A stretch of DNA of 64,000 nt from an uncultured Ignavibacteriales bacterium. GTDB taxonomy: Bacteria > Zixibacteria > MSB-5A5 > GN15 > FEB-12. The DNA is taken from the NCBI GenBank assembly GCA_964544635.1, contig CAZJCK010000001.1:31384-95383 (forward strand), in the 5' to 3' direction. Below the pieces are notes generated by a model, which had not been told where the DNA came from, made no database searches, and saw only the letters and a program-made list of their open reading frames with translations. Every line of letters starts with the position of its first letter. Position 1 is the stretch's first letter. A program made the position numbers and the translations under genes. This document shows positions 13,934 through 41,188 of this stretch, piece by piece.

Positions 13934-16900
13934 AACTGCGCCACCACCTCCCCCCGCGCGGTAATACGCGCCGTGCGATCGTCGGCGTGACGGCCGCTGA
14001 TCCGTAAGCGCGCCCGCAGGTAGTCCCGCAAGTCGCGACGGAAGTCCAGCGACCAGATAGCGCCGCGGCGGCCACTCCGGTTTTCCGTCAGCAGGTACGG
14101 CACGAAGCCGCCCGGGCCGGTAAGATCCTGTGCATACAACTCCAGCGACGAACGCAGCTCTCCCCGCCCGAACAGGCGCAGTCGGCCGGCCAGTTCCCCC
14201 GAAATGATATCCGAACGCAAGCCGGTGGCGGCGTCGGCCCGACGCACATTCCCGCGCAGGCTCACCTCGCCCTGCGCTATTCGCCGACCGGCACGCACAT
14301 TCAGCACAACACCATCGACAATACCGCCACCATTGAAATAGGCGTCCCGATCCGATTCAAACCGCTCGACCCCTTCCTCGAAAAAGAATGCGCCTGCCGC
14401 CTGCTTCAACTGCACGGTGTAGCGTACGTCGTCCTTCAATCGCGGCGTACCGGCCACCTCGCGCAATTCCCGGTCCGACCCGTACGACAGGTTGATCGCC
14501 CAGAAGCGGCCGGTGCGCAGGAGTCGCAACTCGGCGTCGTACCGCCGGACCTGGAACTGGTACGGTTGGTCATCCGACGAATAGAACGGCAGCAGCCATA
14601 ACAGGTCGCGCTCCCCCTCCGGCTTCAACTCTTCCTCGATCGTCGAGTTGAATCGAACCGCCGCCATGCTCCCATACCTGGAGAAGCTGAATCCTTTCTC
14701 TCCCCGTCGGACCAGCGACTCATCAGAGAGAATCTCTTCGACCTGGATGAAATTGCCGTCCGGATCAGGAATGAACCGTCCATCCTCCTCGATAAACTGC
14801 CCCTGGCCCGGATCGACCTCGATATATGCGATCCCCCGCGCATTGCGCGACTCCTCCGACAGCACATACGAGGCGCTGGCATTCAATCGCCGCGCCAGGT
14901 CGTCATACTGAAGATTAAGGCGCGACAGGAAGCTCGACTCATCGGCATTCTCGCGCGTCAGCCATTGGTATGTCAGGATCGTCTGGATGTTCAGGTTACC
15001 GAACCGTCGATCGCCCGACGCGGCAAATCGGTTGCGATCAAGCTCTTCTGACCACGCCGCCGTCAGGGTGTCCTGTACGAATCGCTCGAAGGTGAGTCGA
15101 TTGCCGAAAACGTCAACCCCACTTGTCCATTGCAGGAACCGCGCTCCCGTCTTTGAGCCGGTATAGTGATTGGTACGGTGATCATACGCCGCCCCCGCCA
15201 GCAGCGTGAGCGGTCGCGCAATTCGATAGGCAACGTTGGACGACGCCGTCGCACTGCGGCCACCGGCGCTCTCGCTCGTCAGCTCAGCCTCGGTTGCATC
15301 GACATCGATGGAGACATCAAGCCCCTCATACCCGGCCGTCCTCAGCCCGCCGCCAAATCGAAGTGCACGGAAGCGTCCCGGGTACTGCACGAACCCGAAG
15401 CGGGGCCGGGCCGCCAGCGATGCGACCGGCAGTTGCGCTTCGGCCTGGTGCCACTGCTCGTCGGCATCGAGGCGACTGGTATCCGGCAGCAGGAAGTCAC
15501 GGCGAAAGTCGGCCCGGTTGAACCGCTGCGGTTCATTGAAGCGCCGATCCAGCAGGTGGAAGTTGTAACTCACATGTCCCGGCCGCCCGTTTGACAACCA
15601 GTCGCGCCGATAATCGGCGCGAACGAAATTGCCGCTGTTGTCGTCGTCGTCCATCGCCGACCACAAATTGCGATCGAACCGGCTGTGCCGCCACTCCGCC
15701 GTCAGGCGGCCCAGGGCGTCGTGCCGGTAGGCCGCCCGCGTGGTGACAAACTCGCTCCGCTCCGGTAACGGCACGAAGACGATCGGGGCATAGTCGCCGG
15801 CGCCGACGCCCGCAAACGTATAATTGTTGTCGCCGCGAAAGCGGTAACTCCCTTGCCCCGCGCCCACAAAACTGAACTGCACCGAGTACGCCCCGTTGCC
15901 GCGACCGACAAACACAAAGACCGAATCCGGCAGGCTGTCGCTCACCAAGTCGTAGCTGCCCAAGCTGTCGATACCGATCCCCGACCGCACCGCCGCCATT
16001 GGATCATCTCCCGCCGCTCCCAGCAGCCCCCGATCGACGTCCGACAACTCCCCTGCGACCAGTTCGCTGCGGTCGTCCCCTTCCCGGAGCCATTCGACCT
16101 GCACGATCAGCGACGAATCGCCTGACGCCACCCCGGCGCCGCCGGCAAACAGCTCTTCGCGATACTCATCGGCCGCCGTTTCATAGTCGATCTCGATGCG
16201 ACTGCGACGGTCAATCGGGTGATTGACATTAAATGTTATGCGGCCGGTCGGATAGTCCATGATGTAGTCCTTGTCGCCGCCTCGCTGCAACTGCCGACCG
16301 TCCAGCCAAACCTCTTCCGATCCCGGCACGATTGCGGTCACCTGTGTCCCCTGTGCGACCCGGTACGGCCCCTGCACGCCGTCGCGGCCGACGAACTGGA
16401 CGCGCGCGAATCGACCCTTCGGACGCGCCGCCAGGCCATTCACCGACCATTGCCGCTGTCGAACGTGCACCGTCGCGCCCGACACCCGTCGCTCGTGCCG
16501 CCCCGCCTGTGACAGCGGCGAGGCAATACTGATATCGCCGATTTGCGCGATCACCGACGGTGACCGCAGCTGCAGGTTCACCCGCTCCAGTTCCGACAAG
16601 CGTGAGTTGCTCGTGCCATACGTTGGATCATACCCTCGATCGGTCACCGCCCCGCTGATCTCGACACTTTCCGTCAAGTGGCCGGAAATCCGCAGATCGA
16701 GGGCCTGGTTAAAGTCTGAACCGCCGCCTGTCGTGCTGTTGAACCGAAACGCCTTCGATCCCGTCAAGCTGATATCCGAGAATGCCCCCGGCTGCACCTG
16801 GCCTGTACGGTCTCGGTCTTGCGACGCTTCATCCGGCCGACGTCGCGTGGTCGATTCGACCGATGGAATGTCGACCCCATAACTCCGCTGCAGCCATCGT

Positions 16901-17169
16901 GGCATCGGACGATACACTACGACGACGGTATCTTCCCCCGCCACCGTCAAGCGACCCAGCTCGAAGGCGCCGATCGTATTGTTGAAGGAGTACGCGGTGC
17001 GATCGATCACGGTACCGTTGATCCACACCGAATCGGAATGTTCGATGATGAAATTACTGCCGATGAACAGACGATCGGGCAGGCTTGCGCCCGAGAATTC
17101 GTGCCGCCGCGCCTCAGCCGACCCCGCCCCCAATAACCAGACTGCGATGATGAGTAGACAGGTGCGCAT
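13930..17169 (-). CDS. Large (1079 aa) predicted outer-membrane beta-barrel protein, family not recognised
   Basis: Signal peptide MRTCLLIIAVWLLGAGSAEA. Sequence is rich in alternating R/D/Y/F/G/S strand-like patterns throughout. The C-terminus RGEVVAQF ends in an aromatic residue, like an OMP beta-signal. Confidence 0.45.
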   Translation of the reverse strand: MRTCLLIIAVWLLGAGSAEARRHEFSGASLPDRLFIGSNFIIEHSDSVWINGTVIDRTAYSFNNTIGAFELGRLTVAGEDTVVVVYRPMPRWLQRSYGVDIPSVESTTRRRPDEASQDRDRTGQVQPGAFSDISLTGSKAFRFNSTTGGGSDFNQALDLRISGHLTESVEISGAVTDRGYDPTYGTSNSRLSELERVNLQLRSPSVIAQIGDISIASPLSQAGRHERRVSGATVHVRQRQWSVNGLAARPKGRFARVQFVGRDGVQGPYRVAQGTQVTAIVPGSEEVWLDGRQLQRGGDKDYIMDYPTGRITFNVNHPIDRRSRIEIDYETAADEYREELFAGGAGVASGDSSLIVQVEWLREGDDRSELVAGELSDVDRGLLGAAGDDPMAAVRSGIGIDSLGSYDLVSDSLPDSVFVFVGRGNGAYSVQFSFVGAGQGSYRFRGDNNYTFAGVGAGDYAPIVFVPLPERSEFVTTRAAYRHDALGRLTAEWRHSRFDRNLWSAMDDDDNSGNFVRADYRRDWLSNGRPGHVSYNFHLLDRRFNEPQRFNRADFRRDFLLPDTSRLDADEQWHQAEAQLPVASLAARPRFGFVQYPGRFRALRFGGGLRTAGYEGLDVSIDVDATEAELTSESAGGRSATASSNVAYRIARPLTLLAGAAYDHRTNHYTGSKTGARFLQWTSGVDVFGNRLTFERFVQDTLTAAWSEELDRNRFAASGDRRFGNLNIQTILTYQWLTRENADESSFLSRLNLQYDDLARRLNASASYVLSEESRNARGIAYIEVDPGQGQFIEEDGRFIPDPDGNFIQVEEILSDESLVRRGEKGFSFSRYGSMAAVRFNSTIEEELKPEGERDLLWLLPFYSSDDQPYQFQVRRYDAELRLLRTGRFWAINLSYGSDRELREVAGTPRLKDDVRYTVQLKQAAGAFFFEEGVERFESDRDAYFNGGGIVDGVVLNVRAGRRIAQGEVSLRGNVRRADAATGLRSDIISGELAGRLRLFGRGELRSSLELYAQDLTGPGGFVPYLLTENRSGRRGAIWSLDFRRDLRDYLRARLRISGRHADDRTARITARGEVVAQF

Positions 17170-17190
17170 CGACCGGCTCCATCGACCGGG

Positions 17191-18192
17191 CTATTCGTAC
17201 ACGATGCGACAAAGCAACACCCGGTTGTTGCCGGTATCGACAATCACCAGTCGATCGGTGCCGATTGCGGCCAGGTCCGACGGCTGCTTGAGCGGTTTGT
17301 CCGACCCGGTCAGCATCTTGGGCAGGACCGCCACGATCTCGCCGTAATCGTCGAGCAGGATCAATTCCGCCGTCTCCTGATCGATCAACCAGTAGCCGTC
17401 GCGATTCGCCGTCACCCCGACCGGATAGCCCAATCGGCGATCGCCCAGTTCATCGATGAAATTGCCGTCGAGGTCATACCGCACCAGTCGCCCGTTGTCG
17501 GAGTCGCAGACAACGAAGCGCCGCTGACGGTCGAGGATGATCTTGGTCGGCGACTCCACCTGCCCGCCGGAGTATCCGAAATCCCCGATCAACCGTTGAA
17601 ACTGCCCGGCCTGGTCGAACACGATGATCTCGTTACGCTCCGGGTCGGTCACCCAGGTCTCGCCAAACGACGTCACCGCCGCCGACATCGGATTACCGAA
17701 GCGCAGCGGATCTTCCGGATCGACCAGGCTGATCTGGTCGACATACTCGAGGTGAGAATTGTAACGGGCGACGCGGCGGTTGCCGTAGTCGGCCACCAGA
17801 ATGTTCAGGGCGAAATCAACCGCCAGGTACATCGGACGGTTGAATAGTCCCGTCTGGGCACCGAAGCCGCCGGCATCGTCGAGCACGGCAAACGTCGTAT
17901 CGACCTTCAGCACGCGATGGTTGCGGGTATCGGAAATGTAGAGGCCATCGGCGCCGTCGTACGCCACCCCGGTCGGGCCGCGCAGCGGCGTTTCGATCAG
18001 CCGCCCGACCAGTTCACGCTCCAGAACCAGGGCGGCCGGTATGTTGGCCGGCTGGAGCCTCGTCCCACGTTCCTGCCCGGCCGGCTTTCCGCCACCGGCG
18101 CCGCCGCCACAGGACGCGGCCACAAGTAAGACGGTGAGAATGGCAGGCGCCGCCTTAGAAACGCGCAAACACCGAAACCTGAAGATTTTCAT
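17191..18192 (-). CDS. NHL-repeat (six-bladed beta-propeller) lipoprotein
   Basis: Six NHL-like blades (YISDTRNHRVLKVD, LVADYGNRRVARYN, WVTDPERNEIIVFD, VVCDSDNGRLVRYD, WLIDQETAELILLD, VIVDTGNNRVLLCR). The track start 18291 lies inside the upstream gene. ATG at 18192 gives MKIFRF...ILTVLLVAASCGGG with a lipobox. Confidence 0.75.
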   Translation of the reverse strand: MKIFRFRCLRVSKAAPAILTVLLVAASCGGGAGGGKPAGQERGTRLQPANIPAALVLERELVGRLIETPLRGPTGVAYDGADGLYISDTRNHRVLKVDTTFAVLDDAGGFGAQTGLFNRPMYLAVDFALNILVADYGNRRVARYNSHLEYVDQISLVDPEDPLRFGNPMSAAVTSFGETWVTDPERNEIIVFDQAGQFQRLIGDFGYSGGQVESPTKIILDRQRRFVVCDSDNGRLVRYDLDGNFIDELGDRRLGYPVGVTANRDGYWLIDQETAELILLDDYGEIVAVLPKMLTGSDKPLKQPSDLAAIGTDRLVIVDTGNNRVLLCRIVYE

Positions 18193-18961
18193 ATCCGAGA
18201 AATGGATCAGACGATACCTCGTATCCCCAATACGTCGACTCACCGACGTCGTTGAAGCGGCTGTTGGCACGGCGCACATCCAGCGCCGCATCGATCATTG
18301 AGACCACCCGGTTGACGACCATGCCGAGAATCATGAAGTTGGAGCGACGTTTCAGTTCGTCGCTGTCGTTGCGCAGTTCGCGATAGGCGAGACGCTGCGA
18401 TTCCGACTGCCACTGCCAGCTGAACTGACCGTTGGGATCGTAATACGGGCGATCCCGGTCGGACACGCGCCCGGCGGCATTGTAATCGTGCGTCGAGGTG
18501 TAGAACCCGACCATCTTGCGCGTGAACTCATCCATACCGTCAAGGGCGATGCCGGCATGCTCACCGGCGTAGCGGATGTAGTCATCCTCCTTGTCGTCGG
18601 CCGCCACCCGGAAACCGACGAAACCGGCCCAGAACACTGCTTCCGCCGCCCAGAAGTAGCGCGCCTTCTTCGTATTGCCGACATAATACTCACCCATCCC
18701 CGGCAGCAGGAACGAATAGAGCAACGCCTGGCGCAGGGACTTTCGCTGCGGGCCCGCCGCCGCCGGCTCTTGCACGCCGCCATCCTCGCCGCCGACATCA
18801 AACTCGTCATCATCACTGGCCAACATCCGGTTGGACGCCAGCACCGGGCTGGTCAGATTCATCCGAAACGACTCCTGCACCGGTTGCGACTCCAGGTCGA
18901 TCGCCATCGACGGCGCTGCCAGGAGCAGGATGGATATTGCGACTATCGCTGTATGCTTCAT
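18155..18961 (-). CDS. Secreted/envelope protein with PG(M/L)G(E/Q)xYxGN motif, paralogue of 18977..19903
   Basis: Signal peptide MKHTAIVAISILLLAAPSMA. Motif LLYSFLLPGMGEYYVGNTKKARYFWAAEAVFW. C-terminus LQVSVFARF. DUF5683-like motif by recollection only. Confidence 0.4.
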   Translation of the reverse strand: MKHTAIVAISILLLAAPSMAIDLESQPVQESFRMNLTSPVLASNRMLASDDDEFDVGGEDGGVQEPAAAGPQRKSLRQALLYSFLLPGMGEYYVGNTKKARYFWAAEAVFWAGFVGFRVAADDKEDDYIRYAGEHAGIALDGMDEFTRKMVGFYTSTHDYNAAGRVSDRDRPYYDPNGQFSWQWQSESQRLAYRELRNDSDELKRRSNFMILGMVVNRVVSMIDAALDVRRANSRFNDVGESTYWGYEVSSDPFLGYENLQVSVFARF

Positions 18962-18976
18962 GCTTTCCCGATGCTC

Positions 18977-19903
18977 CTAAAACTGGTATGAGAACCGCAC
19001 CATCGGCGTGTCCTTCCAACTGTGATAGCTGCGCAACTCCGGTGTCACCTTAATGCGGCTGAACTCCGACGGATCCTTGTCCAGGCCTTCATTGATGCTC
19101 CGGGTTGTCAGGTATGCCTCGAACGCCGACACCAGGTGGTTGGCAATGATCACGTAGAGCATCTTGGTCGAATTGTCGTACTTTTCATCGGCATTGAACC
19201 GCATCGTATTGTACATGTCGCGCATGGCCGACTGCGGCACCGTCGGCGGCTCCGCCGGTTTGATTCGCGGCGGCGGATCGGTCACGCTAAAGCTGTCAAG
19301 CGTTTCACCGCTTTGCAGCCGGGCGTCGGCCCATCCCCACGCAAACTGGTCATACTTGCCCGTCATTTCATAATACTGCTGAGTCTTGGTTTCAGGCAAG
19401 TGATGACTGATCTCAGGGCAGTTGCAGTCGGGTTCGGTATTCGCCGAATCGTCATCATTCCACCCGTACGCCCACTGGAGATATTCATCTTCATAGCGCT
19501 CCCGCGACCAGTTGGCGTCATTAAAAGCCTCGAACTCGTCGGTCAATTCGTCGCCATCCTTGTCGTACTGAACGTGCAGGTACCAGCTCAATGCTTCGGC
19601 GCCGGCAAACACAAACGGCTTCCAGCGGTTGCCGTAGTACCACTGGCCCAGCCCCGGCACCGCCAGCGACAGCACGAAGGCCTTGAACGGCGACTTACGC
19701 TTCGGGCCGTCATCTTCATTGAACAAGTCGGTGCCCATGTCGCCGGTCATCGGCGTATCATCCTGGCCGTAGCCGATCGAATAGCGCAGTTCCAGCTCCG
19801 CCTTATCAAACACCGACAGTTCGTTCGCCGGCGCTTCGCTGCCGGCCGTCGACGATACCAGCGCCAGGACTATCATCGATGCTGTGATGTATATCGTCTT
19901 CAT
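18977..19903 (-). CDS. Secreted/envelope protein with PG(M/L)G(E/Q)xYxGN motif, paralogue of 18155..18961
   Basis: Signal peptide MKTIYITASMIVLALVSSTAGSEA. Motif AFVLSLAVPGLGQWYYGNRWKPFVFAGAEALSW. C-terminus PMVRFSYQF. Confidence 0.4.
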   Translation of the reverse strand: MKTIYITASMIVLALVSSTAGSEAPANELSVFDKAELELRYSIGYGQDDTPMTGDMGTDLFNEDDGPKRKSPFKAFVLSLAVPGLGQWYYGNRWKPFVFAGAEALSWYLHVQYDKDGDELTDEFEAFNDANWSRERYEDEYLQWAYGWNDDDSANTEPDCNCPEISHHLPETKTQQYYEMTGKYDQFAWGWADARLQSGETLDSFSVTDPPPRIKPAEPPTVPQSAMRDMYNTMRFNADEKYDNSTKMLYVIIANHLVSAFEAYLTTRSINEGLDKDPSEFSRIKVTPELRSYHSWKDTPMVRFSYQF

Positions 19904-19921
19904 GCTGTCACCTCATCTGCT

Positions 19922-22900
19922 TCAGCGAATAATGGCAATGTCGGTAAAGGCATGGTCGCTGTCACCATCAAATTCCGCCTCCAGGATACATCGATACACC
20001 CCCGGCGTGACACTGCTGCAATCCCAGACCACCTCGTTGTCGATATTGGCTGTCGTGCCGCCGGCAAAGCGTACGATCTCCTGCCCGGTCAAATCATACA
20101 CGATCAAACTGACCGACCGCGCTTCCTTACCGAGCATGTACCGGATCGTCGTCGAGCCGTTCAACACCGGGTTGGGATAATTGTAAAATTTTTCATCGGC
20201 GATACTCACGCCCAGGTTTGGTTTGGCCGGCAGCATCGCTTCGTCGAAAACAAAGCTGCCCGAGGGATCGGCGCCACCCATCGGCCAGTAGGCCAGTTCG
20301 CTACGATCCGGAACGTGCCATAAATAGAACCAGCCGTCGGCGCCGAGATAGCCCAGCTTGCCACCGGTCGTATCTGCCAGCCAGACCGCCGACCCGGCCC
20401 CCTGCTCGCCGCCGGAAAGCGGAAAACCGTACGTTTCATCCGGGCCGAACGAATACATGTTGCCGAGCAGGGTCGGGAAAACGATATCCGGGCGATCATC
20501 CACATCGGTGGAGGCAATGATCGGCGCCGAGGTTACCGGATCGATCGGCGCAAACTGCGGGTCCTGGGTTATCTGCAGACCGGTGTTGAACTCGATCGGG
20601 AAATCGGTCAGCGTGGTCAATTCACGGTTAAAGGCGTGCACGCTGTTAATACCTGCCGCGACTACATCCGGATAGCCATCGGAATCGACATCGCCGATCA
20701 CCACGTTGGCCGAAAACTCGGCGTCGGTTTCGCGCTCGGCATAGACCGATAGTGGCAACGATGTTGCCGTCGTATCCACCGACAGGCACAAGACCTGCCC
20801 GAACTGCGAGGTGACCGCAACCTCCGGAACTCCGTCGAGATTGAGATCGGCAACCGCCGGGCCATAATTGTAGTAACCGTTCAAGCGCAGGGTATCGACG
20901 ATACCTTCATGATCGATATAGTAAAATACCGTCGTCACACCCGCATCGGAACCGTTGACCAGTGTATCCCCGGCAACCACGATCAGGTCGAGACCGATGC
21001 GGGCAATTCCATGATATGTTTCTTCGTCCAGTTGAGTTACAATATCCTGACTGCCCAGCGATTTGCCCACAGAATCAATGTATAAGACCCCTTCATTCGT
21101 TAAGCAATAGAGGCGCTCTCCAAACGATAGTGCGATGGGAAAACCATCGGTACCACCAGTGAGAAACTCTCGATCAGCGTTGCCGTCGTCGTCCGTATCC
21201 ACAGTACTATAGTAGAATATGCGTGAGGCTTCGCTGCCGACTGCGACCAGCTTGGTTGTACCGCCATCAAAACTTCCGGTTACAGGTCCGGCCGTAATTG
21301 TATCCGCAAGCAAGTTAAAGACGAACGCCGGCACCGGGTAGAGCGAGTCGTTCACGCTCGACAACGCCCGGTTGCGCACGGTCGGGCAGGTATCGCACAG
21401 GAAACGACTACCGTCGGTTCGAAAGGCCGCGATCACACCCTGCGACGCCACGATTATCTCATCAATGCCGTCACCGTCCAGATCATCGGCTATCGGCAGC
21501 AGGGCAAAGACCGGATTGCCGACACGCACCGGGAAACCATCGACCAAGCCATCAACCGACACGTCAAACCGTATCACCGAATCAGTCACCTGGGGAATGC
21601 CACCGGCGACGAGCGTATCGCGACGGATGTCGGTTATCGAGATGCGACTGTTGTTGCCGGTATTGTCGTATGTATTGGGGTTGCTGTTGGGCGTGATCCG
21701 ATCGTTCCGATCCTCGCGGAACATATCGTCCTCGCTGCCGAACCCGGCCCGATAGTTCGGTCCGAAGTTGGCGAAGCCGTCGGCCTCAACCAGTCGAATA
21801 AACCGCTGCTTGCCGTTCCATTGCAGATGGTTGTCGTCGAAATTGTTCCGGCCGTTGCCGTTGAAATCCTGGCCGATCACCGCTTCGTCGACATGGTAGA
21901 TCAGCACTCCCGACCCCGGCATGAGCTCATCGAACTCACCGGTCAGGTTGCGATCCAGATCCGATGGTCCTTTGATTACCGACGTTGTCGAGTCGGCCAA
22001 CAGCGCTGTCTCCTTGCCGTCGATGTCGGGAATCCGGTTCTCGATCAGGTAGTACTCGTTTTCCGAGATCGGCACGCGCGCGATCTGTATCCCTTCGGAT
22101 ACCACGTTGGCAGCGACCAGGCGGATATCGTCCCCCTTCCGGAAGTCGACGACCTCCTCGAAACCGAGGAATGCCCGCGACCAGGCGCACGGATAGACCG
22201 GAATGGCGCCGAATGTCCGGCCGGCATCGCCGCCAATGAACTCGATGCCGGTACCGAAGCCGTTGTTGTCCATAAGAGCGAAGTCACCGAGGCGACTGAG
22301 AAAACTGCGCGTGCTGTACAGGTCAACCAGGCCCAGCTGGTGCCCGAACTCGTGTGCCAGCACGGCATTGAGGGCGACTGAACGATTGTCCTGCCACGCC
22401 CGTTCCGGCATCAGCAACGCCGTTCGAACATAGTGCGTGTCAATCGTGATACCGTTGTCATGAATCGTCTCGAGCGAATCACCAAACGAGATCCAGCCGG
22501 TGAACAGATCAGAACAGGTATTGAGCAACACGTTGTTCTGCTGATCCGACCCGGCATGAAACAGGAAGATGGCATCGTAGTTCGCAAAGTTGAGGCCGGC
22601 TTCCGCCGTATCGGCAAGCTGGATACAGTCGATGAAATAGTTCTCCAGTCCCACCACTACCGAATCAAACGCCGTCGCGCCCGGCAGCGCCGTCAGGCAG
22701 GCGCCATAGAATGCCATCTCCCGCGGCAACTGGTAGACCGAATCGCTCACCTCGGGATAGATATCCCATTCAAGCGTGATCTTTCCGTGCGACACCGTCT
22801 CCCAGTAATGAGAGAGCGACGCCATGTGGGCGCTGAAGTAGTCCGCGTTGTGCGGCGCTGGATCGATGAAATGACCCACCTCGGCAAGATACGCCGCGGT

Positions 22901-23251
22901 ATCGACCACCGGATCGACCAGCATCAGGCCGTTGCCGGTGGTGTTCGGATCATCCGGGATTTCTTCCTGGAAGTTGAATCGCAGGACCAGGCAGTTGATG
23001 GTGGTATTAAAGTCGGCGGCCAGCGCCTTGCGAGGCAGCGACCACGGCTTCTCCCGCTCCAGCGGCAGTTTGAACACGTCATCCGGACGCGGCGTCAGGC
23101 AGCGGTGATGCACGTGGCCGTCCGACGTATCCGAGGCCGTACGATCACGATTGATCGGGAGTATCCGGTCCGACGCGGCGGTGGCGGATACCACCACCGC
23201 CAGGGCCATCGCCAGCGTTCCTATGTTGACAAACAGTCCTCTCAAATGCAC
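19922..23251 (-). CDS. M6 (immune-inhibitor-A-like) zinc metalloprotease with FG-GAP/VCBS-like repeats and a T9SS-type C-terminal sorting domain
   Basis: HExxH in AVLAHEFGHQLGLVDLY. Calcium-type repeat loops DLDGDGIDEIIV, DLNLDGVPEVAV, GDVDSDGYPDVV. C-terminal domain FYNYPNPVLNGSTTIRYMLGKEARSVSLIVYDLTGQEIV...GVYRCILEAEF. N-terminal signal peptide. Confidence 0.75.
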   Translation of the reverse strand: MHLRGLFVNIGTLAMALAVVVSATAASDRILPINRDRTASDTSDGHVHHRCLTPRPDDVFKLPLEREKPWSLPRKALAADFNTTINCLVLRFNFQEEIPDDPNTTGNGLMLVDPVVDTAAYLAEVGHFIDPAPHNADYFSAHMASLSHYWETVSHGKITLEWDIYPEVSDSVYQLPREMAFYGACLTALPGATAFDSVVVGLENYFIDCIQLADTAEAGLNFANYDAIFLFHAGSDQQNNVLLNTCSDLFTGWISFGDSLETIHDNGITIDTHYVRTALLMPERAWQDNRSVALNAVLAHEFGHQLGLVDLYSTRSFLSRLGDFALMDNNGFGTGIEFIGGDAGRTFGAIPVYPCAWSRAFLGFEEVVDFRKGDDIRLVAANVVSEGIQIARVPISENEYYLIENRIPDIDGKETALLADSTTSVIKGPSDLDRNLTGEFDELMPGSGVLIYHVDEAVIGQDFNGNGRNNFDDNHLQWNGKQRFIRLVEADGFANFGPNYRAGFGSEDDMFREDRNDRITPNSNPNTYDNTGNNSRISITDIRRDTLVAGGIPQVTDSVIRFDVSVDGLVDGFPVRVGNPVFALLPIADDLDGDGIDEIIVASQGVIAAFRTDGSRFLCDTCPTVRNRALSSVNDSLYPVPAFVFNLLADTITAGPVTGSFDGGTTKLVAVGSEASRIFYYSTVDTDDDGNADREFLTGGTDGFPIALSFGERLYCLTNEGVLYIDSVGKSLGSQDIVTQLDEETYHGIARIGLDLIVVAGDTLVNGSDAGVTTVFYYIDHEGIVDTLRLNGYYNYGPAVADLNLDGVPEVAVTSQFGQVLCLSVDTTATSLPLSVYAERETDAEFSANVVIGDVDSDGYPDVVAAGINSVHAFNRELTTLTDFPIEFNTGLQITQDPQFAPIDPVTSAPIIASTDVDDRPDIVFPTLLGNMYSFGPDETYGFPLSGGEQGAGSAVWLADTTGGKLGYLGADGWFYLWHVPDRSELAYWPMGGADPSGSFVFDEAMLPAKPNLGVSIADEKFYNYPNPVLNGSTTIRYMLGKEARSVSLIVYDLTGQEIVRFAGGTTANIDNEVVWDCSSVTPGVYRCILEAEFDGDSDHAFTDIAIIR

Positions 23252-23271: not shown

Positions 23272-25992
23272 TTACGGCTGCAGCGACAGCGACACGCGTA
23301 GCGTGTTGGCCAGGGCGCTGGCAGTATTGCTCGGAATATACGAGAAGTCAAATCGCAACAGGTCGGCCGGACGCAACCCGGCGCCCAGTGTCAGGTTCTT
23401 CACCTGACCCTCCTGGTCGTAAATGTAACCGGCTCGGACGGCGAAGATGTCGGCGTAGCTGAACTCACCGCCGCCGTTGAAAATAGTCTGCTCCACCTCG
23501 GTGGAGATGCCGTCATCCAGCCCCACCAACAGCTTGTTGGCTTCACCGGTGACGAGGAAGTGGTAGTAATCCGACTCGAACAGCTTGTAGGCAAAACCAA
23601 CCGACAGGTTGCGCGGCAGGTCATCTGCCTGCTCGGCGTTGATGTACGCCATCTTGGGACCGAGATTGGTCACGGCCGCACCGATGTGCAGCTTCGGGTT
23701 GACCTCATAGAGAATACCGAGGTCGACCGCAAAACCGGTCGAGGTACCGGTACCCTGCTCCTGGCCGGCGCCCTGGTCGGACAGTTTGGAGTAAATCACC
23801 TTTGCCGAGATACCGCCCTTGAGCGAGTTGGTCAGCGAGGTGCCGAATGACCCGGTAAAGGCGATGTCGAACGACTCAAACGTCCCCAGTTCCGTGCCGG
23901 CTTCACCGGTACGCTGAATCGTACCGTAGGAGATGAACGTCACACTACCACCCAGCGTACCGACGCCGGACACCGGCGACGTACCCGAGAAGAACAGGTA
24001 GTACAGGTCGTCGGCCAGTTCGGGCAGCCATTTGACGTACATGGTGGAGATCGACGGCCGGCCGGAGGCACGCAGCACCACTTTGCGATCGGTGTTGAAC
24101 CATGGCTCGCTGGCGACAACGCTGACGCCCTTCATCGACGAGCGACCAAGGCCTTTCAAATTGTTGCGGCTGAACTCACCGTCGGACAACTGAAACAGTC
24201 CGACCTCGCTGGCGAAATAGGTGACGGTATTGTGGGTGACAATCTCGTGAATCGGCGTGGCCGCCGGGTTGGCATACACCAGCACCTCGTCGCCCGCCTC
24301 CAGTTCGCCTTCGTCAAGCCCGTTCACCACCAGGAACGCCTCGCGGTAACTGTTGGCATCACTGCCGGCGCTGTACACCTGGCGCTCCGAGAGGACCGAA
24401 TCAATGGTCTGCCCCTCGGAAACTGTTTGCGTCTTCCAGCCCGGCAAGCTCCAGGTATTATTGTCGAATCGCAGCAGGCCATACTCGGTGCCGATGAACA
24501 GCTCATTGCCGCGCTCGTGAATCGAGTACACCTCGCCCTTGATCTGGTGCAGGTACGGCACCCGGATATCTTCACCCGGGTTCAGGTTTTGCATATCAAG
24601 CGTTTCACCCGATACATCCGGCGCCGCCGGCTGCGCGGCAGCTGCGGTATCGGCCTGAGTTGTGTCGCTCCGGGTTGTGTCGGCCTCGGTAGTATCAGTT
24701 TCAGCCGTGGCAGCATTCTGCGCCATCATGTCGGACAGGCGCAGCGCCACCGGCTGCTTCATCTCTTTCATTTTTTCCATATAGCCGTCGATCTCAGCCT
24801 GGGTACCATACACCGCAAACCGACGCGCGATCGACTCCGGCGTATCATCGAGGGCTACTGTGTAGCTGGTGCCGTTGCGCCATTCGGTCCCGTCAAGGTG
24901 CCACAGATCACCATCGATAACCGCCCAGAGCGAATTGGCCGACGTGCCACCGATGGCCTGCACGGTGCCGGCCGGCGCCTGTCCCGGCATCGTGCCGATG
25001 CCGACACCGGTGAAACGGGCGATACCGGAATCAGTACCGATAAACGCCTCGGTCGTGGTACCGTAAAGCGCCGTGATGTTGGTCGACGGCAGTCCTTCGG
25101 TGACACCGATGGTGCGCCAGCGACGGCCGTTGAAGGTCACCAGGCCGCGATCCGATGCTACCAGCAAAGTCTTGTCAACGCCGACAATCCCGCGGATTGC
25201 ACCGCCGACATTCATGGCGTACGGAATAGTGATCTCTTCCGGGATGTACCGGTTGCGCGATTTCTCGACGGCAAAGAAGATCCGCTCGGTTTCTTCGCGA
25301 TCAAGCTCACCATCTTTCATACCGTCGCGGTACAGCTCCTCGGCCCGCTTGAAGCGATCCCAGTCGATCAAGGCCAGGTCGTAGGCTGACACCAGCGAAT
25401 CGAGAAAACGCGTCAGTTCCTCAGCCTGATCATAGCTGTCCGGAACATGCGCCAGTACGGAGTCACGGAAGTCACTGACGGCATCCTTGGGGCGCGGGCT
25501 GTTTTCTGCCGCCACCAGGGCGCTCATCGCCGCCGCCAGGGAGTCATTGTCGATACCCAGATAGGTCCGCGCCAGCTGATCGAGGGTCTGATCGGTTCGA
25601 GTATTGAAGGCATCGCCGGTATGCCAGCGCTTCTGGTCAAAACGCGCCAGCCCCTGTGAGGTGACCGCCCAGACGTCGTACGACTTGAAGGTCGAGCCGC
25701 CGCCGGTACGCACCGCCGCCAGGTCGACGATTGGGCGCAGCCGCGCCGGAATATCGGTTTCCGCCCAGGTATCGGCCAGCGGGTAGGCGCCCAGTCCGGC
25801 CGGGTTCCAGTGGGTGGCGGTGGCATCGTCGGCGATCGCCACGAATGCCTCACCCATACCGGCCGCTCGGGCCCCCGGAGCGATGCGCAAGAAGAGCACG
25901 GCCGATGACGAAATATCGGCCCGGGTGGCCGGTACTAACGAAAGCGCCAGGGCGACCACAATGAGGGGAATGAGCAACGTGCGCAGGTTCAT
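23272..25992 (-). CDS. PorV/PorQ-family-like outer-membrane barrel with a ~570-aa internal insertion (propeller-like and LysM-like segments)
   Basis: N-terminus after the signal peptide: AVLFLRIAPGARAAGMGEAFVAIADDATATHWNPAGLG. The last ~260 aa are barrel-like (FAVDLGILYEV, GAAVTNLGPKMAYI...LPRNLSVGFAYKL, AVRAGYIYD, LTLGAGL). Between them lie Reg_prop-like repeats (DRGLVTFNGRRWRTIGVTEGLPSTNITALY) and LysM-like stretches (YTVALDDTPESIARRF). Immediately downstream of the PorU-like gene. Confidence 0.6.
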   Translation of the reverse strand: MNLRTLLIPLIVVALALSLVPATRADISSSAVLFLRIAPGARAAGMGEAFVAIADDATATHWNPAGLGAYPLADTWAETDIPARLRPIVDLAAVRTGGGSTFKSYDVWAVTSQGLARFDQKRWHTGDAFNTRTDQTLDQLARTYLGIDNDSLAAAMSALVAAENSPRPKDAVSDFRDSVLAHVPDSYDQAEELTRFLDSLVSAYDLALIDWDRFKRAEELYRDGMKDGELDREETERIFFAVEKSRNRYIPEEITIPYAMNVGGAIRGIVGVDKTLLVASDRGLVTFNGRRWRTIGVTEGLPSTNITALYGTTTEAFIGTDSGIARFTGVGIGTMPGQAPAGTVQAIGGTSANSLWAVIDGDLWHLDGTEWRNGTSYTVALDDTPESIARRFAVYGTQAEIDGYMEKMKEMKQPVALRLSDMMAQNAATAETDTTEADTTRSDTTQADTAAAAQPAAPDVSGETLDMQNLNPGEDIRVPYLHQIKGEVYSIHERGNELFIGTEYGLLRFDNNTWSLPGWKTQTVSEGQTIDSVLSERQVYSAGSDANSYREAFLVVNGLDEGELEAGDEVLVYANPAATPIHEIVTHNTVTYFASEVGLFQLSDGEFSRNNLKGLGRSSMKGVSVVASEPWFNTDRKVVLRASGRPSISTMYVKWLPELADDLYYLFFSGTSPVSGVGTLGGSVTFISYGTIQRTGEAGTELGTFESFDIAFTGSFGTSLTNSLKGGISAKVIYSKLSDQGAGQEQGTGTSTGFAVDLGILYEVNPKLHIGAAVTNLGPKMAYINAEQADDLPRNLSVGFAYKLFESDYYHFLVTGEANKLLVGLDDGISTEVEQTIFNGGGEFSYADIFAVRAGYIYDQEGQVKNLTLGAGLRPADLLRFDFSYIPSNTASALANTLRVSLSLQP

Positions 25993-26008: not shown

Positions 26009-29000
26009 TCAGTTTACTACTACTACTTTACCAAAGGATTCTATTGCTTTGCCGTCGGACGTCCGCGCCGAGGCCTTGTAGATATAGACACCGGTCGCCA
26101 CGCGCCGGCCGCTGTAATCCTGTCCATACCATACTATATCGTCATAATACTGCGGCTGTAGACCGCTTCGCGAAAAGCTTTGTATCTTGCGACCGGCAAC
26201 TGTGAAAATATCGAGCGATAGATGACTGACATTATCTGTCAACTCGAAGCTAAACCGCGTCGAGTCCGCCATCGGGTTGGGATAATTCAGCAGGTTGACG
26301 ATCGCCGCCGGTCCCGTCGGCCCGACATCGGCCGTAAATGTCGCAATCGACGCGTTATTGGCGTTGTCCCACGCCTTGATCTTGAAGGTATGCTCACCCG
26401 GCGCCAGCTCGGCCAGGGCGTAGTGTAACCGGCCGACCGTGTAAGTGTTCGGGTCATATTCGAATAAGCTGGTCAAATTCTGCACAGCCTCGACATCACC
26501 GTCGATCTCCAGCGTAATCCCCTGCCCCAGCCCGCCGGCCAGGTTGATGCCCGACTGGTCGGTCAACTCGATCTCGAGCATATCGCCCGAAGAAATTCGC
26601 CCGCCCGGCTCAAAAGTCGGGTTGCCGGCAAAGTTGTAGGCGATCGACGGCCCCGCTGAGTCGGTCGGCACCACCACCGAGTCCGACACCGCCAGTGAAT
26701 CGACCGACCCGGCCGCATCGACAGAGCCGAGGTTGCCGTACACCACAACCCGTGCACCCTCACCACCGTAGCCGAGATCCAGCGGCGGAATGAAATCAAA
26801 CGAAAACTCGCCGTTGCTGATCGTTGCCGTACCCCGGAATATCTGCGCGCCGGTCATCTGGTACTTGATATCGCGCGTCGGGTTGGTAGCGTTGGCCGGG
26901 CGATGCGTCATCTGGCGATCGGTATCATACACCACGATCGACAGCGTACCGTCCTGCACCAACGTCGTACTGTCGGTATTCAAAACCCGCCCGGCCACCG
27001 TTGTCGGTTCCAGCGCCCGGAGGCTGTCGGGGAAGGTCGTGAATTCGACAACATGTTCCGGCAGGCCCAGGCGCAACAGCGGATCACCAAAGAAGTGATA
27101 CTGCTGGTCATTCGCTTCCGGACGCGGCGTATTGGTGCCGTTGTACTGCCGCGCCACCTTGGCGGCGTAAATCGCCTCGCACATCGACAGCGAGTCGTTG
27201 TACAACAGGACATCGAACACCGCCTTGTTGAAATCTGCATTCTCCTGTGCGTAGACCAGCCGCGATGCCGACAGCACGCCGATAGCGCCGCCATTCGGCA
27301 GTATCATCAAATCTTCCCCCATCCCCTCGCGTTCCGGGTCATCGAAGAAACCGATTGCGCACGATGCCGCAAAGAACAGCGGCAGCTTACTGTTGTTCGT
27401 CAAGCGGGGCAGGTCGCTGCTCCGCAGGAAGACCGCCTCGTGCGCCCACTGTTCCGGGTTTCCGTGACCGACATAGTTGATCAGCAAGGTACCGTCGTTC
27501 AGGGCCCGCACGATGGCGTCATTTACCGCCGGCTTCTTCTCGTTCACATTGGGATAGTCCCACAGGTAAATCTTCTCGCGCGTCAACAGGCTGGGAATGT
27601 AGTTCGAGTCGAGGCGCTGCGTTTCAATCACGTGGAACGTCTCGTAGTTCACGACGGTACCGTTGCGCCGCGCGAACTCGTCGTCCGCCACCAGCGTGAT
27701 GTCGGTCCGCCAGGTACCGAATGTCGCGGGCGACGCATACGCTTTCGCGCGCGCTACGATCGTCGCCACCTCGGCGCTGCTGCGCACCGGCCAGCGAGCG
27801 ATCATCATGTCCAGGCCGCCATCGCCATTCACCAGGCTGGTGTCGCTGTCGAGTATGCCGTAATCGCCGAAATATACAAAGTTGTCGTCCGCCACCGGCA
27901 CCACGGCGCCACGGTTGAGTATGAACGGGGGCACATAGTTGCGCGTACCGGTACCGAGGTAATCGAGATAATCGTACGATCCATCCCCAACCAGCAGCAC
28001 AGCGTAGGGCGACGGTTCCGGGAGGTTCTCCCAGGCAAAACGCAAAAAGTCGCGGATGGCGGTCGGGTCATAGAGGCCAAACCCGAACTCGGTCATGATA
28101 TCCGCTACCGTCACCACCGTGATGCTGTACCCCTCCGACTGGCGCCACGAAGTGTACTCATCCAGCGCGTCCGTGAACCGCTCGTCGGTCACGATGATCA
28201 GGTCAGACTGCGGCAGGCCGGTGCGCAGCCCGGCCAGTTGCGGCTGCTCGATCGATACCGGGCCGAAAGCAGTCGATACCGGCGCGATGTAGAACTGGTT
28301 CGAGGTATCAGGTTCAATCTGGCTGGAAAACCGCAGCAATCCGGCAGACCGCGTCGCGTTTGAAATCCTCATCGGTCGCATCGGATCGGATATGTCGAGT
28401 ACAAGCGGGTTGCTTGAGAAGTTGTCGACGACATCGATATTCGCCAGGCCATCCTGCTGCGGTACGTACAGGTCCAGCACGTTGTTGACCGGCAGCAGTT
28501 CACTCGGATAGGCAATCTCTACGAAGTTCAAGAACGGCAGGTTACCAGAGTTTGAAGGATGCACCTTTATGTCAAGCACATTCAAACCGTCGGTCAGCGA
28601 TGCCGTCGTAAATTTACAGTTCAGTCGATTGCACGTTCCCTTGTCTGCCGAAATACCGTTCACGTTCAGGGTGACGTACGGCGAATAGGTCGCGGCATTG
28701 ACGAACACCGTCGCGCTTTCTCCCAGCATGATCCCCGGGGTCGCCGTCGACAATGTCACCAGGCTGTCGCTCGTCCAGTGCCAGTCGAGGTAGTTGTCAA
28801 TATGACCATCCGTTTCCCGCTTCAGCAGGTTCTCCTGCTCGAGACGGACGATCCGCTCGAAGTTCGTAATGTTGAGCGTCGCGCTTCCCGACGGTGCTCC
28901 GTTGATCGACGGCATCCGTACCGGTGGTGTTGTACCGGTATAGCTGGTTGTCAGCCAGTAAGCATTCAAAGATTCATAGGGATTGTTCACATAACTGAGG

Positions 29001-29857
29001 GCAAAACTGCCGAGCCAGGCATAGCGGTCGAGCGCTTCAGCATAGAAGATAATCGCATCGTTGGCATTGAACTGGTTGTCCCCGCCATCCTCTATGATGA
29101 TGGCCACCTCGCGCATATCCGGCAGCTCCGGCTGGTTGTCGATCGGCAGTTGACGTCCGCCGCCATTGAACATCCGGATGTCGCTGCTGTTCAGACCGAC
29201 CAGCGACAGACCGGCCGCCTCCAACTGCGATCCCGTCACACGACAGAGGCCGGAACGGTCGGTCCGCAGTACCAGCCAGTCGGAACCGTTCTCCAGTTCC
29301 GATTGCACGGCCGACGTCGACGACGCGAACGGTTTCATGCCGCCCCACAGCCGCGCTGCATCCCAGTTGGCTGCTGAAGCCGAGAGAATGCGATCGAAAT
29401 GGGGATCATTGACCGGCCGCCCGATTGAACGAGCCGCCCCGATAAACCGTACTGTGAAGTCGACTGTCGGAAATACCCGATCCCCGGCCACCGGGCTGAT
29501 GCGCACCGTTACCATGCGCCGGCCGCGTGTTGCAACCATGCTACCAATTGTCGCCAGTGGGACGGCGGCCGTAGCCTCGGTGGCACGGTAATCCCGTCGC
29601 AGCGACGGCAGGTCACTGCCGGCAGCCGAAACCAGCTCGGGCGTCGCACCGGGTGGCACAATGAGCGTAATGTCGCGATAGTACCAGATCGATGAATCGG
29701 CCGTCTTCACCGTGCTGAGATTGGACAGATCCGTCGCAACCGTCAACCGCCCGGCGAACGATTCATTTGATGACTGGATAATCTCAAGATCTGCGGCCGC
29801 CACGGAGGCGCCGAGACAGAAAACGAGGCATACTATTCGATACAAGAAGTTTTCCAT
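26009..29857 (-). CDS. PorU-like peptidase C25 (gingipain-fold) protein with T9SS-type C-terminal domain
   Basis: C25 hallmarks LIIVTDERFTDALDEYTSWRQSEGYSITVV, AVLLVGDGSYDY, catalytic-type His in NYVGHGNPEQW and Cys in LFFAASCAIGFFD. CTD LLNYPNPMADSTRFSFEL...VATGVYIYKASA. 1282 aa, signal peptide, adjacent to the PorV-like gene. Confidence 0.75.
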   Translation of the reverse strand: MENFLYRIVCLVFCLGASVAAADLEIIQSSNESFAGRLTVATDLSNLSTVKTADSSIWYYRDITLIVPPGATPELVSAAGSDLPSLRRDYRATEATAAVPLATIGSMVATRGRRMVTVRISPVAGDRVFPTVDFTVRFIGAARSIGRPVNDPHFDRILSASAANWDAARLWGGMKPFASSTSAVQSELENGSDWLVLRTDRSGLCRVTGSQLEAAGLSLVGLNSSDIRMFNGGGRQLPIDNQPELPDMREVAIIIEDGGDNQFNANDAIIFYAEALDRYAWLGSFALSYVNNPYESLNAYWLTTSYTGTTPPVRMPSINGAPSGSATLNITNFERIVRLEQENLLKRETDGHIDNYLDWHWTSDSLVTLSTATPGIMLGESATVFVNAATYSPYVTLNVNGISADKGTCNRLNCKFTTASLTDGLNVLDIKVHPSNSGNLPFLNFVEIAYPSELLPVNNVLDLYVPQQDGLANIDVVDNFSSNPLVLDISDPMRPMRISNATRSAGLLRFSSQIEPDTSNQFYIAPVSTAFGPVSIEQPQLAGLRTGLPQSDLIIVTDERFTDALDEYTSWRQSEGYSITVVTVADIMTEFGFGLYDPTAIRDFLRFAWENLPEPSPYAVLLVGDGSYDYLDYLGTGTRNYVPPFILNRGAVVPVADDNFVYFGDYGILDSDTSLVNGDGGLDMMIARWPVRSSAEVATIVARAKAYASPATFGTWRTDITLVADDEFARRNGTVVNYETFHVIETQRLDSNYIPSLLTREKIYLWDYPNVNEKKPAVNDAIVRALNDGTLLINYVGHGNPEQWAHEAVFLRSSDLPRLTNNSKLPLFFAASCAIGFFDDPEREGMGEDLMILPNGGAIGVLSASRLVYAQENADFNKAVFDVLLYNDSLSMCEAIYAAKVARQYNGTNTPRPEANDQQYHFFGDPLLRLGLPEHVVEFTTFPDSLRALEPTTVAGRVLNTDSTTLVQDGTLSIVVYDTDRQMTHRPANATNPTRDIKYQMTGAQIFRGTATISNGEFSFDFIPPLDLGYGGEGARVVVYGNLGSVDAAGSVDSLAVSDSVVVPTDSAGPSIAYNFAGNPTFEPGGRISSGDMLEIELTDQSGINLAGGLGQGITLEIDGDVEAVQNLTSLFEYDPNTYTVGRLHYALAELAPGEHTFKIKAWDNANNASIATFTADVGPTGPAAIVNLLNYPNPMADSTRFSFELTDNVSHLSLDIFTVAGRKIQSFSRSGLQPQYYDDIVWYGQDYSGRRVATGVYIYKASARTSDGKAIESFGKVVVVN

Positions 29858-39709: not shown

Positions 39710-41188
39710 ATGCGAATCGTCTTAGCTATTCTGGCAGTCCTTATCCTGTCCACCTCTGTCTCGGCCTGGGATTTGAATTTGGTGGAGTCGCGGATTCTGA
39801 CCGACACAACAGTGCCGGCTCACTTGGGTGTGATCTTGTCGGGCCACGGAGATGTGGCCGGGTACAGTTATTCCCACAAGGCTGGCGCCATCTGGCGCGA
39901 CGATAGCCGTTTCGTCGTAGACCTGATTGGCGATACCCCGATTGAACTGCGAGTATCGGGATGGTTGAGGGGTAGTGTCAGTATCGCACAACCTGACGGT
40001 CAATACTACTTCTACTTATTGACAGAAGTTAACATGCCCAAAGCGCAGATATTCAAGGCCGCGATGAAGCCGCACCTGGCCCTCATAGATTCCGCCATAG
40101 TAGTCAACGACGAATTCTATCGCGGTGGAGCCCCCATGGATGAATATCGTTATGAGTTGAGCCTCGTCGACAGCATGGTGATATTCGAGGAGGATCGACG
40201 GGAGCGCATTTGGGATGGGACCATTGGCTTCGAAGAGAACCGTCGCGTTCAGAGTACGGCACTGAACTTCGATCTGACCGAAATCATCCAGTGGCCCGGA
40301 CGAAGCTTGCGACCGTTCTTCAACAATGCCACGCAGTCCCACTGGTGGGGCTATGTGCACTTGAGACACGACTATTACAATACTGACTACGGCAGCGGAT
40401 CCTCCAGCTATGGGTACGAGGGCATTGTCGACACCGACAAGAACGTGGTGCTGTCGCAAAGCCTTGGCCAAAACGAGTCCCTGGTTGAATCAGGCGATTT
40501 GCTTACAGCCTGTCCGGGTGAGGAGATTGTTTACAATTCACCCACTCCTGGAATTCTTTTCATGAATCCCGACGGCTGGAGCCTGTCGTACTACTATGTC
40601 GATGGAGACAGTATCAAGCAAGCCTGGTATACGCCATCGCATCGCTATGAAAAACTGTTTCATTACCAGGCCCGAAACCTGCTTGTTGGACTGTCACCTT
40701 CGCATCAGTTCCACCTCTTCGACGCCGCCACCGGCACCCTGCTCGAAACGATACCTGTCAATCCCGACATCATCTTCTACGACTTCCACGTCACCGCCCC
40801 ACCCACCGAACGTCTCCTGATTGTCGGACGTGAAGCCAACGAACTGCTTCTCTATGAATTCGCCGAATTCACCGACATCGATGATACCGAGAGCGACATC
40901 ACACTCCCAGCCAACCTGCGCATCACCGCCGCCTGGCCCAATCCGTTCAATGCCAATGTGAATATCATGCTCAACGTCCCGTCGCGAAGCCGGGTAACCG
41001 TCGAGATCGTCAATCTCCTCGGACAGGTGGTTGCATCGATACACAACGGCGCACTATCGGCGGGAGAGCATTAGTTGTACTGGAACGGCTACACCTCCGA
41101 CGGTTCCCCGGCCGCGTCAGGCATCTACTTCGCCCGCGCCCAAAGCGACGGCTCAACGGCAACCGTCAAGATTCAATTGCTAAAGTGA
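39710..41188 (+). pseudogene. Secreted protein with T9SS-type C-terminal sorting domain interrupted by an in-frame TAG (41072-41074); frame continues to TGA 41186-41188
   Basis: Signal peptide MRIVLAILAVLILSTSVSA. The CTD begins AAWPNPFNANVNIMLNVPSRSRVTVEIVNLLGQVVASIHNGALSAGEH, then TAG. The same frame then reads LYWNGYTSDGSPAASGIYFARAQSDGSTATVKIQLLK*, which is the expected remainder of this domain. Confidence 0.6.

Follow-up and report, generated by a model that had tools for sequence, protein, structure and literature searches.

What becomes of a shuttle protein when a module larger than the protein itself is built into it? PorV, an outer-membrane barrel of type IX secretion systems (T9SS), is currently seen as a small shuttle with lateral mobility, which picks up cargo at the translocon and takes it to the attachment complex of PorU. 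The locus analysed here lies in a 64,000-nucleotide stretch of Zixibacteria DNA (contig CAZJCK010000001.1), which we refer to as the window and in whose numbering positions are given. Its porV-family gene (23272..25992 on the minus strand, taken from the open reading frame (ORF) list, with the stop codon at 23272-23274) encodes a protein of 906 residues. An earlier note on this DNA, made by reading the sequence, had described the product as a PorV-type barrel split after its first strand by a large insert. We find instead an intact barrel. Judged by its sequence, the protein is the PorV of a Zixibacteria-type T9SS, a canonical component of the system that carries a large, conserved, phylum-wide and predictedly periplasmic insertion at an unusual site.

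Family models place the protein with PorV. The NCBIfam PorV/PorQ family model NF033709 scores 234.2 bits against a cutoff of 90, its match falling into two pieces, and the Pfam PorV family PF19572 matches at 63.7 bits (cutoff 27). Among the narrower models, the PorV equivalog NF033710 (175.5 bits, cutoff 250) scores above PorQ (78.5 bits, cutoff 220) and PorV2 (45.7 bits, cutoff 325), all three staying below their cutoffs. A family profile was built from 67 aligned full-length homologues and searched against the PDB sequences. It matches Flavobacterium johnsoniae PorV (6h3i_F) with an E-value of 8e-37 in three pieces: residues 5-65 align to PorV 3-63, residues 645-823 to PorV 71-258 and residues 822-904 to PorV 308-393. 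About 577 residues therefore stand where the F. johnsoniae protein has about 7, between its residues ~63 and 71. The earlier note had recognized a PorV-type protein whose homology is interrupted by a large insert, had given a length of about 390 residues for PorV (the solved chain has 402) and had named PorU as the neighbour; the searches bear out all of this, PorU matching NF033707 at 632 bits. The first 25 residues (25918..25992, minus strand; …LVPATRA/DISS) read as a signal peptide with a putative cleavage site and without a lipobox cysteine. Canonical PorV, as known from F. johnsoniae (6H3I and 8GL6, chain F) and Porphyromonas gingivalis (PorV/LptO), shares with the Zixibacteria protein the N-terminal hatch motif with its NPA, the 14-stranded FadL-type barrel, the positions of the loops that contact the cargo C-terminal domain (CTD) and the adjacency to porU. 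It differs in length (~390-402 versus 906 residues), in the size of the segment at the insertion site (~7 versus ~577 residues) and in being free to shuttle, whereas the Zixibacteria PorV is probably tethered.

Where exactly does the insertion fall? The gap between the two PorV-homologous pieces comprises 577 residues (70-646; 24055..25785, minus strand), and the interval 24058..25770 given in the earlier note corresponds exactly to residues 75-645. The C-terminal piece, residues 647-906 (23275..24054, minus strand), forms a complete 14-stranded FadL/PorV-type β-barrel according to AlphaFold, Foldseek and the alignment to PorV 71-393. A full-length AlphaFold2 model was computed from the 67-sequence alignment, with a mean predicted local distance difference test score (pLDDT) of 79.6 and a predicted template-modelling score (pTM) of 0.74. 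In this model, all 14 strands lie within residues 647-904, linked in alternation by short turns (2-4 residues) and by longer loops, as in a complete FadL/PorV barrel that begins with a strand rising from the periplasmic face. A Foldseek search of the PDB with the model ranks PorV first (8gl6_F; E 2e-16, target TM 0.60) and places FadL, TodX and TbuX next. Because all the strands are C-terminal to the insert, the barrel is unsplit, and the split barrel of the earlier note has to be given up.

The same applies to the supposed first strand. The N-terminal piece, residues 26-69 (25786..25917, minus strand), was delimited by its alignment to F. johnsoniae PorV 3-63 and ends in the motif HWNPAGLG. 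In the full-length model, residues 15-69 are non-strand and of low confidence; by the refuting condition set in the earlier note itself, they contribute no strand to the barrel. The NPA motif is a feature of the FadL-family hatch, which plugs the barrel lumen (PMC8407342); the names of FadL mutant entries among the Foldseek matches ('delta NPA', 'N33A' and 'P34A') also reflect this motif. By this homology, HWNPAGLG is the end of a FadL-type hatch with its NPA, and not a first strand, so that in the model the insertion point is between the hatch and strand 1 and not between strands 1 and 2. The hatch has a pLDDT below 50, although it is the best-conserved segment of the protein (mean identity 88%, where the barrel has 62% and the insert 33-41%). 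Because of this low score, we infer its position inside the barrel lumen from the family homology only.

On which side of the membrane would the inserted module lie? In F. johnsoniae PorV, N87 and F115, which belong to extracellular loops reaching into SprA, make contact with the CTD of the cargo (PMC10994853). In the family-profile alignment, the counterpart of N87 is D661, part of a short conserved loop (LPELADD) that follows strand 1, and the counterpart of F115 is Y689, an invariant residue close to the outer end of strand 3. Because D661 and Y689 align to residues of extracellular loops, strand 1 (residues 647-655) should run from the periplasm to the outside. It would thus start at the periplasmic face, and the module directly before it is predicted, from this homology-based topology, to be periplasmic. 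The conservation of the two loop positions is also the sole feature of the protein that points to binding of type-A CTD cargo and PorU or to docking on SprA/Sov.

The fold of the insert emerged from profile and structure comparison. Such methods were needed because a Pfam scan of the insert alone gave no family above threshold, and Reg_prop (PF07494) found no match even at E≤10. An AlphaFold model of the insert alone, based on 86 aligned relatives, has a pLDDT of 90.3 and a pTM of 0.85, and shows a single confident unit except for residues ~412-470. The family profile matches the Reg_prop sensors of Bacteroides hybrid two-component systems (HTCS; 4a2l, 3v9f and 3ott) at E-values of 1e-15 to 1e-10 over residues ~251-371. 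The top Foldseek matches of the insert in the PDB are likewise periplasmic HTCS Reg_prop sensors (BT4673, BT4663 and BT3049), followed by designed 8-bladed and natural 7-bladed propellers, with PorZ (5m11) at rank 9. The Reg_prop-like repeats that had been spotted by eye in the earlier note are thus real at the level of profile and fold. Seven segments with the pattern …xWxgTxxGLxxFdGxxW align with one another (residues 89-129, 263-296, 299-335, 338-372, 481-516, 575-610 and 612-645). We read the modelled insert as one seven-bladed Reg_prop-type propeller into which a bundle of six helices and a pair of divergent LysM domains are built.

All parts of this propeller are encoded on the minus strand. 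A first propeller strand (residues 74-79) and blade 1 (89-129), placed by secondary structure and repeat alignment, occupy 25603..25779. The six-helix bundle (residues 136-246; 25255..25587) is set between blades 1 and 2; its helices, at residues 137-245, are modelled at pLDDT >90, and it has no Pfam match. Blades 2-4 (residues 252-372; 24877..25239) are defined by the profile match to the HTCS sensors, the repeat alignment and Foldseek, whereas blade 5 (residues 481-516; 24445..24552) and blades 6-7 (residues 576-645; 24058..24267) are defined by the insert model and the repeat alignment. Strand 74-79 probably acts as a 'velcro' strand that closes the last blade; if it completes that blade, both ends of the module would meet at the mouth of the barrel. 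Between the hatch and this strand there are only about five conserved residues (YPLAD.W). The best-conserved motif of the insert, AVEKSRNR(Y/F)IPEE, comes right after the helical bundle: it reads AVEKSRNRFIPEE here (residues 241-253), at the junction of bundle and propeller and outside the LysM domains.

The HTCS sensors (BT4663, BT4673 and BT3049) and PorZ share the repeat type of this propeller, and the HTCS domains are periplasmic as well. They consist, however, of two tandem propellers with an Ig-like/YYY domain or a CTD, and PorZ is located at the cell surface; the insert in PorV has one propeller, of seven blades, into which the helical bundle and both LysM domains are set, and family scans and the model revealed no YYY or CTD domain that would complete the HTCS/PorZ architecture. 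These comparisons bear on the idea that the insert handles cargo or lipopolysaccharide (LPS) at the surface, or represents a PorZ-like propeller fused to PorV outside the cell. PorZ acts with PorU, PorV and PorQ at the surface, it is found at rank 9 in the Foldseek search, and some of the relatives with shorter inserts give weak matches to the PorZ hidden Markov model (HMM). Yet the insertion precedes strand 1, which would start at the periplasmic face, and is not in an extracellular loop. The likeness to PorZ is, moreover, no better than that to generic Reg_prop/WD40 propellers, and the PorZ HMM has no match in the 906-residue protein. We regard a surface module as very improbable. Of the two functions suggested in the earlier note, peptidoglycan binding stays plausible on the strength of the LysM-like sequences, whereas a cargo-binding role at the surface becomes unlikely given the predicted periplasmic location, and gives way to the reading of an anchor or scaffold in the periplasm.

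How good is the case for LysM? The first LysM-like domain (residues 373-480; 24553..24876, minus strand) is supported by a profile from which the linker was removed, by its predicted fold and by a partial match to Pfam LysM at residues 377-394. The second (residues 517-575; 24268..24444, minus strand) is supported by the match of its profile to solved LysM domains and by its predicted fold. Pfam LysM (PF01476) itself stays below threshold (13.4 to 15.3 bits versus 20.9) and is matched over its first 18 profile positions only; a few homologues have precomputed PF01476 matches. The linker-free profile of the first domain finds solved LysM domains with a best E-value of 0.007, with Ecp6, SafA, MltD and YaaH among its matches, and most of the matches listed are LysM proteins. 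The profile of the second domain finds the LysM domains of Thermus NlpC/P60 proteins (4uz2, E 3.9e-7; 4xcm, E 4.5e-5), together with LytE and AtlA. For both segments, the AlphaFold models predict the order β-α-α-β. These results uphold the two LysM-like stretches of the earlier note and support the view, drawn from profiles and predicted folds, that both segments are divergent LysM domains; that they bind glycans containing N-acetylglucosamine, or peptidoglycan, is plausible by homology. The T/D/A-rich linker that had also been noted (residues 412-470; 24583..24759, minus strand) is placed inside the first LysM domain, between helix 2 and strand 2, the last strand. It is disordered in the model (pLDDT <50 over 414-420 and 429-464), varies between 8 and 113 residues in length among relatives and has a mean identity of 17%.

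Is such a protein a reality of the organism or a product of assembly? More than 120 full-length homologues are found, 850-957 residues long and 43-51% identical over 97-100% of the length; across these proteins and 80 species-level genomes, the insert keeps its 33-41% identity and about 18 invariant residues. A genome scan covered one genome per GTDB species, using a full-length alignment seeded on the hatch motif, and yielded 281 relatives, of which the best 80 were used. In these 80 loci the match takes in the whole protein or the greater part of it, and in nearly all it runs over query residues 1-906. Almost all of them are from Zixibacteria, several complete chromosomes among them. The unusual length of the gene, and nothing else, speaks for an assembly chimera or a gene-fusion artefact. 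Against it stand the homologues from independent assemblies, the even GC content along the whole gene, the same architecture and synteny in the 80 species-level genomes, complete chromosomes included, and the confident folding of the insert in the model, with its two ends probably brought together. The chance of an artefact is negligible, and the misassembly against which the earlier note had cautioned is excluded by an architecture conserved in at least 80 independent genomes.

When the insert alone was searched against a library of 1.84 billion cluster representatives, 58 clusters gave matches with E<1e-30. The listed ones are mostly proteins of ~850-950 residues in which the module starts near residue 70; the others listed are shorter, mostly partial entries, or variants of ~1050 residues with the module starting near residue 270. 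Past these 58 clusters there are only generic Reg_prop proteins. Databases already name such proteins: where the sources give a name, it is 'PorV/PorQ family protein', from Zixibacteria metagenome-assembled genomes. Many of the loci carry the submitter label Ignavibacteriales or Ignavibacteriaceae, and some GN15. One related record is titled Calditrichaeota and one Deferrimicrobium, with the same operon and the same level of identity as the records labelled Zixibacteria. The titles that name other groups are probably automatic taxonomic labels and no true spread to other phyla.

Ten more distant proteins of the PorV_fam family, 754-1052 residues long, share the design. They have a hatch at ~30-68, a C-terminal barrel and, at the same junction, an insert of ~425-715 residues, which indicates that the insert has been remodelled between lineages. 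Reg_prop is above the Pfam threshold in all ten (22.9-63.2 bits). LysM is near threshold in two (Pfam LysM, 18 bits versus 20.9), and a third matches the LysM-containing YneA model of NCBIfam. Relatives with variable inserts are found in the loci L081/L082 (10001..12265 in the numbering of those loci) and in the proteins P0158, P0170, P0173, P0179, P0185, P0192, P0194 and P0198. That the shorter (754-823 residues) and longer (~1050 residues) forms might be PorQ-like paralogues was considered and, for the 754-residue form, rejected: it occupies the same porU–porV–M6 position and, because of this synteny, is an orthologue with a different insert length.

What, then, might the module do? We lean, somewhat beyond an even chance, to the reading that it serves as a cis-acting periplasmic peptidoglycan anchor and scaffold, by analogy with PorE. 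The core task of PorV would probably be unchanged, with type-A CTD cargo being bound and presented to PorU. From the hatch–strand 1 junction at the periplasmic mouth, the ~60-kDa module would hang in the periplasm directly under the barrel; its LysM domains would bind the glycan strands of peptidoglycan, and its propeller and helical bundle would offer a surface for protein interactions. In this way, the PorU–PorV attachment module, with the docked translocon, could be fixed to the cell wall and perhaps to periplasmic parts of the T9SS.

Several points weigh against this proposal. A PorV tethered to the wall conflicts with the lateral 'shuttle' model for the Bacteroidota protein. Both LysM domains of the 906-residue protein are below the Pfam threshold, and the first has DDTP where the GDTL loop is usual, so that its binding of glycans may be reduced or gone. 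Secondary structure and topology are the basis on which the number of blades, the closure by the velcro strand and the place of the module below the barrel were read. The hatch, finally, was modelled at such low confidence (pLDDT <50) that its plugging of the lumen is deduced rather than seen in the model.

PorE provides a close functional parallel. This periplasmic lipoprotein with TPR, β-propeller, CRD and OmpA_C domains is indispensable for secretion and binds a fragment of peptidoglycan, and a role as wall anchor of the T9SS has been proposed for it (PMC7192894). It associates with PorP, a FadL-type barrel, and wall anchoring seems to vary between the model organisms (PMC9143113). The P. 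gingivalis protein (PG1058) thus resembles the module in combining helical-repeat, propeller and peptidoglycan-binding domains and in being tied to a 14-stranded FadL-type barrel. It differs in being a separate lipoprotein, in its five-bladed WD40-type propeller and its CRD, and in an OmpA_C domain, not LysM, that binds the peptide stem. Pfam and NCBIfam scans of the 906-residue protein gave no TPR, CRD or OmpA_C matches, and it has no lipobox. The likeness is a functional analogy only, with no sequence homology detected. The idea of a PorE in cis predicts that Zixibacteria lack PorE.

The same architecture could serve a different end. The module might sit next to the SprA/Sov translocon, where that opens to the periplasm, and serve as a platform for docking or recruitment on which the propeller and the bundle bind PorK/N, PorW/SprE, Skp-like or peptidyl-prolyl isomerase (PPIase)-like factors, or cargo, while the LysM domains are structural or vestigial. 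Propellers and helical bundles are typical scaffolds for protein interactions (PMC7192894), several periplasmic accessory proteins are found on the Flavobacterium translocon (PMC10994853), the most conserved motif of the insert lies at the junction of bundle and propeller and not in LysM, and the LysM domains are divergent and below threshold. On the other hand, two LysM domains have been kept throughout the family of ~900-residue proteins, and weak LysM matches appear in two or three of the ten distant relatives; this retention argues for selection on the LysM domains. Docking is also compatible with anchoring. We consider a platform whose LysM domains play no binding part possible, if rather doubtful.

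The short connection between module and hatch allows two further readings. One is that of a glycan sensor or gate in the periplasm: the propeller, together with the LysM domains, would bind a glycan, soluble or linked to a lipid, such as muropeptides or an LPS-type anchor precursor, and signal to the hatch, thereby modulating PorV. The nearest folds are indeed the glycan-sensing periplasmic domains of HTCS proteins, only ~5 conserved residues separate the hatch from the first propeller strand, and the NPA hatch of FadL changes conformation on ligand binding (PMC8407342). But the HTCS sensors use two tandem propellers and dimerize for their ligand, whereas there is a single propeller here, and the lumen of PorV is not known to take part in transport or gating; the idea is purely inferential, and we judge it improbable. 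In the other, the module would act as a mechanical link and not as a passive anchor. Being joined to the NPA hatch by those ~5 conserved residues, and having its hold on peptidoglycan or on the periplasmic T9SS machinery, it could tug at the hatch or shift it within the barrel, in the way that TonB works on a plug domain, and so couple periplasmic and ultimately proton-motive energy to the hand-over or release of cargo on the extracellular loops. We give this quite a small chance; if true, it would be a previously unseen route of energy coupling for the attachment step of the T9SS.

How unusual would a peptidoglycan-anchoring module on an outer-membrane barrel be? In inverse autotransporters, a single canonical LysM domain lies in the periplasm, ahead of the barrel. 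The intimin family and YeeJ are thus also outer-membrane barrels with LysM, but they belong to another barrel family and secretion type, have no propeller, and do not have LysM inserted after a hatch. One of them, Escherichia coli YeeJ, is reported to have a LysM domain and to bind peptidoglycan (PMC5595812), which makes it a further precedent for the anchor reading. The FadL-like proteins of Treponema pallidum combine a barrel that has an NPA-type hatch with an extra periplasmic helical/TPR domain (PMC8407342). This is a small C-terminal helical bundle and not an insert between hatch and strand 1, and the proteins are unrelated to the T9SS. A literature search found nothing that joins PorV or the T9SS with Zixibacteria, and nothing relevant on PorV with LysM.

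Against this background, the anchor and scaffold reading would have several consequences. Fixation of the T9SS to the wall is known for Porphyromonas only, through PorE, and seems to be different in Flavobacterium; a propeller/LysM module on PorV throughout a phylum points to a second anchoring route. The Zixibacteria protein would also be a natural case of a probably immobilized PorV, in organisms that are uncultured, and is relevant to the question of whether PorV has to shuttle at all. A FadL-family barrel can evidently take up a ~60-kDa domain at the junction between its hatch and strand 1, which is possibly useful for engineering. The finding has value for annotation too, because such proteins fall below the cutoff of the PorV equivalog.

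The gene stands in a conserved setting. PorU, the C25-type sortase of the T9SS (1282 residues; 26009..29857, minus strand; NF033707, 632 bits; Peptidase_C25, E 2e-81), lies directly upstream. When the neighbouring proteins of the window were searched by tblastn against the best 80 loci, PorU was immediately upstream of porV in all 80. Downstream is an M6-like metalloprotease with an HEFGH motif (19922..23251, minus strand); family scans assign to it FG-GAP repeats and, at the C-terminus, a T9SS sorting domain of type A. It is found in 73 of the 80 loci; the other seven extend only ~0-2.5 kb beyond porV. The protein partly matches the NCBIfam model 'T9SS-dependent M6-like inactivated metalloprotease' (256 bits versus a cutoff of 600), and its HEFGH zinc motif is intact, so that it may be an active protease as well as a T9SS cargo.

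The M6-like gene opens a conserved run that follows porU–porV on the minus strand of the window (12290..23251) and comprises this protease, two DUF5683 proteins, an NHL propeller, a protein of 1079 residues and an Omp85/POTRA protein of 547 residues. The same order is seen in essentially all loci long enough to show it. The gene for the 1079-residue protein (13930..17169, minus strand) adjoins the Omp85-type gene. Its product has no Pfam family and no match among the PDB sequences, and shows a weak local match to SprA/Sov (21 bits, residues 278-332); it could be a TamB-like or a novel outer-membrane component. The NHL-repeat ORF and the preceding DUF5683 gene (17191..18291 and 18155..18961, minus strand) overlap by ~135 nucleotides. 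An internal methionine of the NHL-repeat ORF (MKIFRF…LLVAASCGGG) is followed by a lipobox-like LVAASC, which suggests that the true NHL protein is a shorter lipoprotein.

Elsewhere in the window, a protein of 454 residues (39710..41074, plus strand) has a near-threshold type-A sorting domain of the T9SS (20.4 bits versus 23; in Pfam, 23.5 versus 27) and is a further candidate cargo. Envelope genes are found among 1850..3652, 46772..48229, 51779..53539 and 55397..56593, coding for BatD, an MltF-like lytic transglycosylase, a SurA-like protein with two PPIase domains and the platform protein F of type II secretion systems and type IV pili. The window also contains genes of central metabolism, namely sucC, sdhA/frdA, asparaginase II and a tryptophanase-like ORF.

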